From a virus (Duplodnaviria > Heunggongvirae > Uroviricota > Caudoviricetes): a stretch of 10,905 nt of DNA. The DNA lies in the IMG/VR virus record IMGVR_UViG_2874951433_000005; one strand, written 5' to 3'. Positions 3,257 through 4,170 of this stretch are shown here, one piece after another (positions within the stretch are counted from its first letter, which is position 1; each line of letters opens with the position of its first letter). The position numbers and the translations under genes were made by a program. Under the pieces are notes generated by a model. It was not told the DNA's origin. It searched no databases and saw only the letters and a program-made list of their open reading frames with translations.

Positions 3257-3308
3257 TTGCCCTAAGCATGTTGTAGTGCGATACTTGTAATGACATTTGT
3301 AATTACAA
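3257..3308 (+). promoter_or_regulatory. relBE promoter and operator (relO-like): -35 TTGCCC, 17-bp spacer, -10 GATACT, overlapping TTGTAAT/ATTACAA repeats
   Basis: TTGCCC at 3257-3262, GATACT at 3280-3285, and TTGTAATGACATTTGTAATTACAAG at 3286-3308, immediately upstream of relB. Confidence 0.7.
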
Positions 3309-3320
3309 GAGGTGTAAGAC

Positions 3321-3560
3321 ATGGGTAGCATTAACCTGCGTATTGACGATGAACTTAAAGCGCGTTCTTACGCCGCGCTTGAAAAAATGGGTGTAACTCC
3401 TTCTGAAGCGCTTCGTCTCATGCTCGAGTATATCGCTGACAATGAACGCTTGCCGTTCAAACAGACACTCCTGAGTGATGAAGATGCTGAACTTGTGGAG
3501 ATAGTGAAAGAACGGCTTCGTAATCCTAAGCCAGTACGTGTGACGCTGGATGAACTCTGA
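3321..3560 (+). CDS. relB: RelB antitoxin (79 aa)
   Basis: MGSINLRIDDELKARSYA...RNPKPVRVTLDEL matches the E. coli Qin-prophage RelB from memory. Its TGA overlaps the relE ATG (TGATG). Confidence 0.95.
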   Translation: MGSINLRIDDELKARSYAALEKMGVTPSEALRLMLEYIADNERLPFKQTLLSDEDAELVEIVKERLRNPKPVRVTLDEL

Positions 3561-3847
3561 TGGCGTATTTTCTGGATTTTGACGAGCGGGCACTAAAGGA
3601 ATGGCGAAAGCTGGGCTCGACGGTACGTGAACAGTTGAAAAAGAAGCTGGTTGAAGTACTTGAGTCACCCCGGATTGAAGCAAACAAGCTCCGTGGTATG
3701 CCTGATTGTTACAAGATTAAGCTCCGGTCTTCAGGCTATCGCCTTGTATACCAGGTTATAGACGAGAAAGTTGTCGTTTTCGTGATTTCTGTTGGGAAAA
3801 GAGAACGCTCGGAAGTATATAGCGAGGCGGTCAAACGCATTCTCTGA
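3560..3847 (+). CDS. relE: RelE mRNA-interferase toxin (95 aa)
   Basis: MAYFLDFDERALKEWRKLGSTVREQLKKKLVEVLESP...VISVGKRERSEVYSEAVKRIL matches RelE from memory. Confidence 0.95.
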   Translation: MAYFLDFDERALKEWRKLGSTVREQLKKKLVEVLESPRIEANKLRGMPDCYKIKLRSSGYRLVYQVIDEKVVVFVISVGKRERSEVYSEAVKRIL

Positions 3848-3918
3848 ACCAAAGCATGACATCTCTGTTTCGCACCGAAGGTGACACTTCTGCTTTGCGT
3901 TGACAGGAGAAGCAGGCT

Positions 3919-4074
3919 ATGAAGCAGCAAAAGGCGATGTTAATCGCCCTGATCGTCATCTGTTTAACCGTCATAGTGACGGCACTGGTAACGAGGAAAG
4001 ACCTCTGCGAGGTACGAATCCGAACCGGCCAGACGGAGGTCGCTGTCTTCACAGCTTACGAACCTGAGGAGTAA
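3919..4074 (+). CDS. hokD: Hok-family small membrane toxin HokD/RelF (51 aa); below the ORF-track length cutoff
   Basis: Translated by hand: MKQQKAMLIALIVICLTVIVTALVTRKDLCEVRIRTGQTEVAVFTAYEPEE. An AGGAGA ribosome-binding site sits 7 nt upstream. Confidence 0.9.
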   Translation: MKQQKAMLIALIVICLTVIVTALVTRKDLCEVRIRTGQTEVAVFTAYEPEE

Positions 4075-4144
4075 GAGACCCGGCGAGTGAGAAATCCCTC
4101 GCCACCTCTGATGTGGCAGGCATCCTCAACGCACCCGCACTTAA

Positions 4145-4170
4145 CCCGCTTCGGCGGGTTTTTGTTTTTA
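4145..4170 (+). terminator. Intrinsic terminator downstream of hokD
   Basis: Stem CCCGC / GCGGG with loop TTCG (4145-4158), followed by TTTTTGTTTTTATTTT. Confidence 0.6.

Follow-up and report, generated by a model that had tools for sequence, protein, structure and literature searches.

The relB-relE-hokD operon of an IS600-bracketed prophage remnant as the probable right end of a transposon inserted into a hok gene

A prophage remnant in IMG/VR virus record IMGVR_UViG_2874951433_000005 (Caudoviricetes) contains relB, relE and hokD in the order of the relBEF operon, with all three open reading frames (ORFs) open. This raises the question of how a toxin–antitoxin (TA) pair came to stand directly in front of a toxin gene of the Hok/Gef family, and whether the two together keep the locus in an otherwise decaying prophage, as an earlier note on this DNA had proposed. 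The whole stretch of 10,905 nucleotides was analysed and is referred to below as the window. Comparison with related loci indicates that relBE probably reached a hok gene as the cargo of a transposon, of which the relBEF operon preserves the right end; we put the probability of this at about seven in eight.

The right terminal inverted repeat of an ISEsa1-like transposon lies downstream of relE. Its reverse complement (TGTCAACGCAAAGCAGAAGTGTCACCTT) matches the left end of the element (TGTTAACACCAAGCTGTAATGTCCCCTT) at 21 of 28 positions, starting from the first base, and both ends start with 5'-TGT. Directly behind it stands the right copy of a 15-bp target-site duplication, GGAGAAGCAGGCTAT; the ATG of hokD consists of the last two bases of this duplication and the following G. 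The complete element is flanked on either side by this 15-mer in loci L100, L101, L104 and L107, and the uninterrupted hok loci L012 and L013, which for this reason serve as empty sites, have a single copy of it. The complete element is 3301 bp long (L107, 7046–10346) and is composed, from left to right, of the left end (TGTTAACACCAAGC...), the transposase gene, flxA, ydfV, relB, relE and the right end (...CTTTGCGTTGACA). Its transposase (446 aa) is annotated as 'IS1202-like element ISEsa1 family', and the gene is present in the complete copies L095, L100, L101, L104, L107 and L108 and in 789 Escherichia coli genomes. E. coli CV839-06 is one strain whose element is intact. The window has no such gene, and IS600 sits there at 3037. 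Elements with relBE as their last part were found in many E. coli prophages, at the chromosomal secG/argG site and on a Salmonella IncI plasmid.

At five sites, 15-bp duplications can be read at both ends of the element, and their sequence differs from site to site: GGAGAAGCAGGCTAT in the hokD type of lambdoid prophages, GGAGAAGAAGGCCAT and GGAGAAGAAGCCATG in hok variants 1 and 2 of IncHI2-type contexts, TGGAGGGGCTATGAT in the pndA-type gene of the Salmonella IncI plasmid, and CAACCTGGGGTGATA at the non-hok chromosomal site between secG and argG. Four different hok-family genes (the hokD type, the two IncHI2 hok types and the pndA type) carry insertions, each with its own matching duplication. 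In the hok insertions, the hok leader stands to the left of the element, and to its right come the duplication and then the remainder of the hok ORF. The Rfam match to the sok/hok-leader region ends exactly at the left end of the element in L101 (6875–7046) and L095 (256–413). In IncHI2-type contexts, the element takes a second form, which agrees with the first at the transposase end (91% identity) and the relBE end (98.8% identity) and has ISEsa2, a cytochrome b gene and a cation-efflux (CDF) gene where the first has flxA-ydfV.

hokD itself represents the 3' part of a prophage hok/sok locus, with neither promoter nor sok, and is the third cistron of the relB transcript. The Rfam sok model (RF01794), which covers the hok leader and sok region, gave no match in 3000–4350 at E ≤ 10. 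Intact hok loci used as positive controls scored 94–128 bits; K-12 hokC and hokB gave 118 and 110 bits, and the sequences just upstream of hokD genes 98–99% identical to that of the window gave 104 bits in O157:H7 SS52 and 115 bits in C43(DE3). In alignments, identity to intact hok loci starts at 3905/3906, at the ribosome-binding site, and the DNA to the left is unrelated. Neither the sok antisense gene nor the hok mRNA leader with tac, the mok start and the Sok target is present in the window. A mok-coupled frame is also lacking: an in-frame TGA is located at 3901–3903, and the DNA 5' of 3905 is transposon rather than hok leader. The Hok/Gef toxin ORF, the 3' fold-back inhibition (fbi) element and the terminator are retained. 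Intact prophage hok/sok loci, namely the hokD-type loci of O157:H7 and BL21-derived strains and hokW-sokW of Sp5, share 98–99% identity with the window over the stretch that begins with the ribosome-binding site and takes in the ORF, fbi and the terminator, as well as the neighbourhood of DUF977, hok, rem and DUF968. They differ in having their own promoter, tac, mok and sok (Rfam 104–115 bits), none of which is found in the window. This hokD type is carried by 4015 of 5426 complete E. coli genomes and is joined to relBE in 1159 only.

Of the two toxin systems described in the earlier note, relBE stands as a complete one with its operator, and both toxin ORFs are intact, but hokD has no antidote: given the missing sok, mok and 5' leader and the blank Rfam result, it cannot be counted as a complete second system. 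According to northern blots, K-12 transcribes the three genes together from the relB promoter, and the hokD part of the transcript accumulates after toxin-induced cleavage (PMC3598666). HokD is toxic on overexpression (bioRxiv 10.1101/2025.08.07.668861), and K-12 hokD mRNA is edited to 6% at the UACG site of Tyr47 (PMC12214031), a motif that can also be read in the window. As hokD has its own ribosome-binding site and neither mok nor a Sok target, how strongly it is expressed should depend on the transcription of relBEF and on local mRNA structure. With regard to this structure, tac, the natural 5' partner of fbi, is absent from the window, and the predicted minimum free energy fold pairs 3896–3903 with the fbi core at 4126–4133 (z = -2.6). 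Pairing of fbi with sequence 5' of the hokD ribosome-binding site was considered as a general substitute for tac and rejected, since it is predicted in the window, L020, L038 and L042 and not in L015, L017, L023 and L027. We keep it as a prediction for the window allele only.

The following course of events can be proposed. An ISEsa1-like (IS1202-family) transposon of 3.3 kb would have entered the hok locus of a lambdoid prophage between leader and ORF, duplicating the 15 bp that span the hok ribosome-binding site and the AT of the ATG. The right copy of the duplication would have restored to hok a ribosome-binding site and a start codon, now directly 3' of relE, so that hokD would be transcribed from the relB promoter; having been split from the hok leader by the insertion, it would have lost its own RNA antidote. 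Later deletions would have removed the left part of the transposon and the hok leader in K-12, where just the final 225 nt of the transposase gene are left, under the annotation ydfW. In the genome studied here, IS600 would have removed everything left of 3037, and because of it the window retains less of the element than K-12. The remnant would consist of 868 bp of the transposon (3038–3905) and hokD. The related loci lend good support to this origin by transposition into hok, and what novelty the analysis has is confined to it.

Several points weigh against this origin. The window has only the right end and one copy of the duplication, and the transposon reading rests on related loci; transposition is deduced from filled and empty sites, and none was observed. 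ISEsa1 has been tabulated as 1609 bp in length, with 15/22 repeats and no detectable duplication (PMC10132070), and the 3.3-kb unit may be an insertion sequence (IS) plus adjacent DNA mobilised via a second right end, not one IS. The predicted pairing between fbi and the sequence before the ribosome-binding site is absent from four of eight related relBE-hok loci, and that HokD is translated from the relBEF mRNA is something we infer. As for the length of ISEsa1, a right end at 1609 bp was considered and rejected. The block common to the two cargo variants is about 1610 bp (L107, 7046–8655), no convincing inverted repeat was found at about 8655 of L107, where the variants diverge, and the duplications flank a unit that ends beyond relBE. 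This suggests that the published right end of ISEsa1 may not be the end used and that the entry (1609 bp, 'no duplication') stops short.

Duplications of 15–17 bp and 5'-TGT ends have been described for the ISTde1 subgroup of the IS1202 family (bioRxiv 10.1101/2022.12.17.520857). The present element shares with this family the ISEsa1-family annotation of its transposase, the 5'-TGT ends, the 15-bp duplication and orientation-specific insertion, the last being similar to that of the ISAba32 subgroup at dif sites. It differs in carrying cargo (flxA-ydfV-relBE or cytochrome b-CDF-relBE), which makes it at least 3.3 kb long against 1.6 kb, and in favouring the hok translation start, not XerCD sites. 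Type II TA genes carried as a fixed part of a transposable unit are known, for example, as cargo of Tn3-family transposons; there the transposase belongs to another family, whereas here the TA genes are at the extreme right end, adjoining the terminal repeat.

Table 1. Features of the window discussed in the text (positions are those of the window; "." means that no strand applies).
Feature	Position	Strand	Remarks
IS600 copy 1	1784-3037	+	1254 bp; starts TGAGG, ends CCTCA; orfA and orfB; RefSeq 'IS3-like element IS600 family transposase'
Chimeric ydfV' ORF	2991-3296	-	3038-3296 is K-12 ydfV; last 45 nt replaced by IS600 sequence
Left boundary of relBE unit	3198-3226	.	Internal, degenerate inverted copy of the transposon right end
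relBEF promoter	3257-3285	+	TTGCCC, 17 nt, GATACT; identical to K-12; placed from the published operator span -10 to +17 (PMC2812701)
relO operator	3285-3308	.	Two abutting 12-bp half-sites, four hexads
relB, antitoxin and repressor	3321-3560	+	79 aa; Pfam RelB PF04221, 1e-32; NCBIfam equivalog NF008412
relE, ribosome-dependent mRNA endonuclease toxin	3560-3847	+	95 aa; Pfam ParE_toxin PF05016, 2e-13; TIGR02385 RelE_StbE
Right terminal inverted repeat (IRR) of ISEsa1-like transposon	3878-3905	.	Element ends at 3905
Right copy of 15-bp target-site duplication GGAGAAGCAGGCTAT	3906-3920	.	hok ribosome-binding site and AT of the start codon
hokD (relF), Hok/Gef membrane toxin ORF	3919-4074	+	51 aa; Pfam HOK_GEF PF01848, 1.2e-23
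UACG at Tyr47	4057-4060	+	TadA A-to-I editing motif (Tyr to Cys); read from sequence
3' UTR hairpin	4082-4103	+	Holds the only two differences of the operon from K-12: 4086 G>A, 4088 G>T
fbi (fold-back inhibition) element CCTCAACGCACCC	4124-4136	+	Complementary to tac GGGUGCUUGAGG of intact loci L012 and L013
Intrinsic terminator of hok mRNA and relBEF transcript	4143-4170	+	7-bp GC-rich stem (hairpin 4143-4160), then T run

The operon in the window is the already known K-12-type relBEF, unchanged in sequence within an IS-ridden prophage remnant. Positions 3036–5940 align to the cryptic prophage Qin of E. coli K-12 MG1655. Between 3153 and 4085, a range that includes the promoter, relO, relB, relE, the spacer and the whole hokD ORF, there are no DNA differences; the first ones on either side are at 3152, 4086 and 4088. 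RelB is identical over its full length to the crystallised K-12 protein (PDB 4FXE, chain A), and RelE is likewise identical to K-12 RelE in PDB 4V7K. The antitoxin gene comes first, and it overlaps relE by 1 nt within TGATG. The hokD ribosome-binding site, AGGAG, is at 3905–3909, 9 nt 5' of the ATG. The earlier description of relB and relE as overlapping and intact, and of hokD as a 51-aa ORF with its own ribosome-binding site and terminator, was thereby borne out, the alleles being those known to function in K-12, and no inactivating substitution in relE or hokD was revealed by the comparison. Gene order is also the same as in K-12, on into rem and ydfU. The window differs from K-12 in that ydfV is cut by IS600 45 nt before its end, flxA, ydfW and what lies beyond are replaced, ydfU is frameshifted, and another Q/RusA region follows downstream. 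Another difference is the pair of substitutions in the 3' untranslated region (UTR): the 96-nt segment with the 4082–4103 hairpin has a fold of -31.1 kcal/mol against -37.4 kcal/mol for the K-12 allele. The 4086/4088 allele is also present in E. coli TOK-001.

Both relO half-sites, TTGTAATGACAT (3285–3296) and TTGTAATTACAA (3297–3308), are exact matches to those published by Overgaard 2009 (PMC2812701), where they were mapped in K-12 by mutagenesis and footprinting, so the operator repeats are preserved, as had been noted before. They contain four [A/T]TGT[A/C]A hexads in two abutting half-sites that overlap the promoter, which is the arrangement expected of RelBE. Across 21 diverse relBE units, relO is among the best-conserved stretches (0.94). 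The -35/-10 pair matches the consensus at 8 of 12 positions, below the promoter-scan threshold of 9/12, and was assigned from the published operator position instead of the scan. In K-12, RelB2-RelE represses the promoter at relO, with repression set by the RelB:RelE ratio; RelB, which neutralises RelE, is degraded by Lon, and RelE, once free, cleaves mRNA in the A site of the ribosome (PMC2812701, PMC3507626). Judged by its sequence, for which these functions are established in K-12, relBE of the window is a complete, autoregulated type II TA module. RelB dimers, aided by RelE, would bind the four relO hexads and repress the promoter, and the loss of RelB would free RelE to cleave mRNA on the ribosome.

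IS600 copy 1, located upstream, belongs to the IS3 family: it has orfA, orfB and TG...CA ends, and its 1254 bp together with a 10-nt deletion agree with the IS600 length of about 1264 bp. The ends were set by comparison with the inverted copy 2 and eight related chromosomes (L004–L011). It ends 219 bp upstream of the -35-like TTGCCC at 3257 (about 220 bp in the earlier note); the distance to relO is 247 bp and that to the relB ATG 283 bp. The copy is oriented so as to read towards relB. When compared with copy 2 at 10642–10652, copy 1 lacks 10 nt (AAAAGCAACA) near 2101, including the A-run frameshift site, and as a result orfA ends early (ILKRILHRSR and a stop codon). The closest relative, L009, does not share this deletion. 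Copy 1 probably cannot make a fused transposase, because the A-run frameshift site of IS3-family elements is lost. Its flanks, TCC to the left and CTG to the right, show no duplication, and the left one is unrelated DNA; therefore, copy 1 marks a rearrangement, not a simple insertion. Homology to K-12 stops at 8158 of L001, and ydfV ends there at 8203. Public assemblies contain the exact 101-aa ydfV' chimera in 573 blocks. In none of the complete E. coli RefSeq genomes is the IS600/ydfV' junction contiguous, but it is present in many NCBI chromosomes rich in IS1 and IS600.

Could IS600 materially alter the expression of relBE-hokD in the host by read-through? This would be an addition to the transposon origin of the operon, not an alternative to it, and we consider it rather unlikely. 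Since orfA and orfB read towards relB and no terminator-like site was predicted in a scan of 2950–3320 on the + strand, read-through is geometrically possible. However, no outward promoter was predicted in 2950–3256, the copy has its deletion in the frameshift region, and IS600 sits 160 bp outside the conserved 708-bp relBE unit. Moreover, as can be inferred from PMC2812701, extra transcripts would yield RelB and RelE at the usual ratio and thus more repression.

This relBE unit, of about 708–713 bp, extends from about 3198 to exactly 3905, has sharp ends and recurs across genera at about 99% identity (L014–L048). On its left it has at least 15 different flanks, and on its right about 16, the latter with the breakpoint at the same nucleotide, 3905. 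The 713-bp unit is present on 784 PLSDB plasmids, 617 of them conjugative, in Klebsiella, Enterobacter, Citrobacter, Salmonella and Escherichia. The inverted repeat at its left boundary scores 13 against 5.4 ± 1.2 in shuffled sequences, a score reached by 0 of 2000. At least seven Hok-family lineages, including R1-Hok-like, HokE-like and PndA-like ones, stand directly 3' of the relBE right end across genera. In other genera, only the right end is visible at the relBE-hok junctions of L020, L023, L027, L038 and L042, and both junctions are visible in L102, L103 and L095. Wherever both ends can be seen, the orientation of the insertion relative to hok is always the same. The element thus appears to be specific in target and orientation, its target being the hok translation start immediately behind a small leader hairpin. 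We lean towards a wider reading: a cargo-carrying IS1202-family transposon, always with relBE at its right end, would prefer hok-family genes as targets and insert at their ribosome-binding site and start codon with a single orientation, each insertion separating hok from Sok and putting it under the RelB/RelE-controlled promoter.

Instead of repeated insertion, the hok variants behind relE in other genera could have come from homologous exchange between hok loci after a single ancestral relBE-hok fusion. hok genes are conserved around the ribosome-binding site, ten loci have an identical 2.1-kb left flank and different right flanks, and the Kluyvera locus L038 is an orthologous relBE-hokD with 90% identity. 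Nevertheless, at loci with both ends in view, the leader and the matching duplication to the left of the element belong to the same hok variant as the ORF to its right. An exchange of the ORF only would not give this, and we regard such exchange as improbable.

Several candidates for the nature of the unit ends were rejected. They are not integron attC sites, since, by eye, GTTGACA is unlike GTTRRRY and there is no inverse core site; nor are they IS26-type repeats, as no CTGTTGCAAA was seen by eye. An independently inserted miniature element was rejected too, there being no duplication around the unit alone in L030, L032, L033, L037 and L041. A search within E. coli for the empty site of the unit, made with the Qin left flank, revealed a deletion variant only. 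In a Citrobacter locus (L024, 2846–3011), a complete hok leader (Rfam sok, 94.7 bits) in inverted orientation adjoins the relBE right end at the same nucleotide. In the IncHI2 plasmids L097 and L098, IS150 is located inside the leader of a plasmid hok gene, and the K-12 hokA locus presumably also has an IS150 insertion. hok leaders appear to be recurrent IS targets.

The proposal that addiction retains the locus requires relBE and hokD to be two independent complete addiction systems, with post-segregational killing explaining their persistence in a decaying prophage. The intact toxin ORFs of relE and hokD are in line with it, and the plasmid distribution of the 713-bp unit fits a stabilising role of relBE on plasmids. 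However, without the Sok antidote or mok, hokD cannot act as a hok/sok killer module, and chromosomal hok loci that were tested gave no post-segregational killing (Hok survey, bioRxiv 10.1101/2025.08.07.668861). Delta-relBEF strains are viable and are routine laboratory tools (PMC3598666, PMC2812701), and the relBE-hokD locus is present in 1159 of 5426 complete E. coli genomes (21%), so that 79% do without it. The 6.7 kb between the IS600 copies, pseudogenes included, has 1–16 substitutions relative to the window among four related chromosomes. At this divergence, relBE-hokD is no different from its decaying neighbours, the pseudogenes being equally conserved, and there is no locus-specific selection signal. 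Retention by two toxin systems, as put forward earlier, is not supported by these observations and is very improbable. An unspecified deletion or rearrangement that removed the hokD leader and placed hokD behind a resident relBE, with no transposon involved, follows the wording of reviews (hokD has been described as inactivated 'by genomic rearrangements', PMC12214031) and the lack of a transposase and left end in the window and K-12, but it is scarcely credible in view of the complete elements with matching 15-bp duplications at four hok-family genes and one non-hok site, the hok leader adjoining the left end of the element, and the same-nucleotide breakpoint in about 16 right-flank contexts.

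The prophage remnant (1784–10905) is bracketed by the two inverted IS600 copies. It is indeed decaying, as the earlier note had stated. A +1 frameshift disrupts ydfU (DUF968) near 5565, and the gene of the Q antiterminator is interrupted by a premature stop codon at 6789–6791; both are common to the window and L009 only, and the genes are intact in L004, L007 and L011. The P21-type holin S gene (9440–9724) runs into IS600 copy 2, matches positions 1–54 of 64 of the profile and has lost its 3' end. In the related chromosomes (L004–L011), the remnant is found in both orientations relative to ydfI/ydfJ and the ynfE-side genes, which indicates an inversion mediated by IS600. The window has a third arrangement on its left side.

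Two tRNA genes (7289–7361 and 7466–7539) and the small RNA STnc100 (8239–8428, 121 bits) are located 3' of Q, as in lambdoid late regions. A 111-aa ORF at 8454–8789 on the - strand is listed as PmrD (PF11183) in the precomputed table of related loci, and a direct Pfam scan of it was blank at E ≤ 0.001. On the left edge, an IS3-family orfA-like ORF (1–327, - strand) and a 224-aa ORF with HTH_23 and HTH_Tnp_1 domains (401–1075, - strand) can be noted, which points to further IS debris in 1–1075. Rfam hits to isrK (20.7 bits) and CRISPR-DR36 (22 bits) are far under the gathering scores, lie on the terminator and hairpins and were treated as chance.

For the window itself, this is an ordinary finding, a known operon. 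We found no prior description of its transposon origin, and our claim is limited to that. No paper linking ISEsa1 with relB, relE, hok or flxA was found, much of the older hok literature being outside the search, and hok genes linked to relBE are not discussed in the recent Hok survey (bioRxiv 10.1101/2025.08.07.668861). If the proposed origin is true, relBE of K-12, a model toxin–antitoxin system, would be transposon cargo, and the 'orphan' status of hokD would get a mechanical cause. It would bear on how TA genes spread, the same 713-bp unit being carried by so many plasmids, on the target choice of IS1202-family elements, and on the reading of relBEF experiments in which hokD is co-induced.

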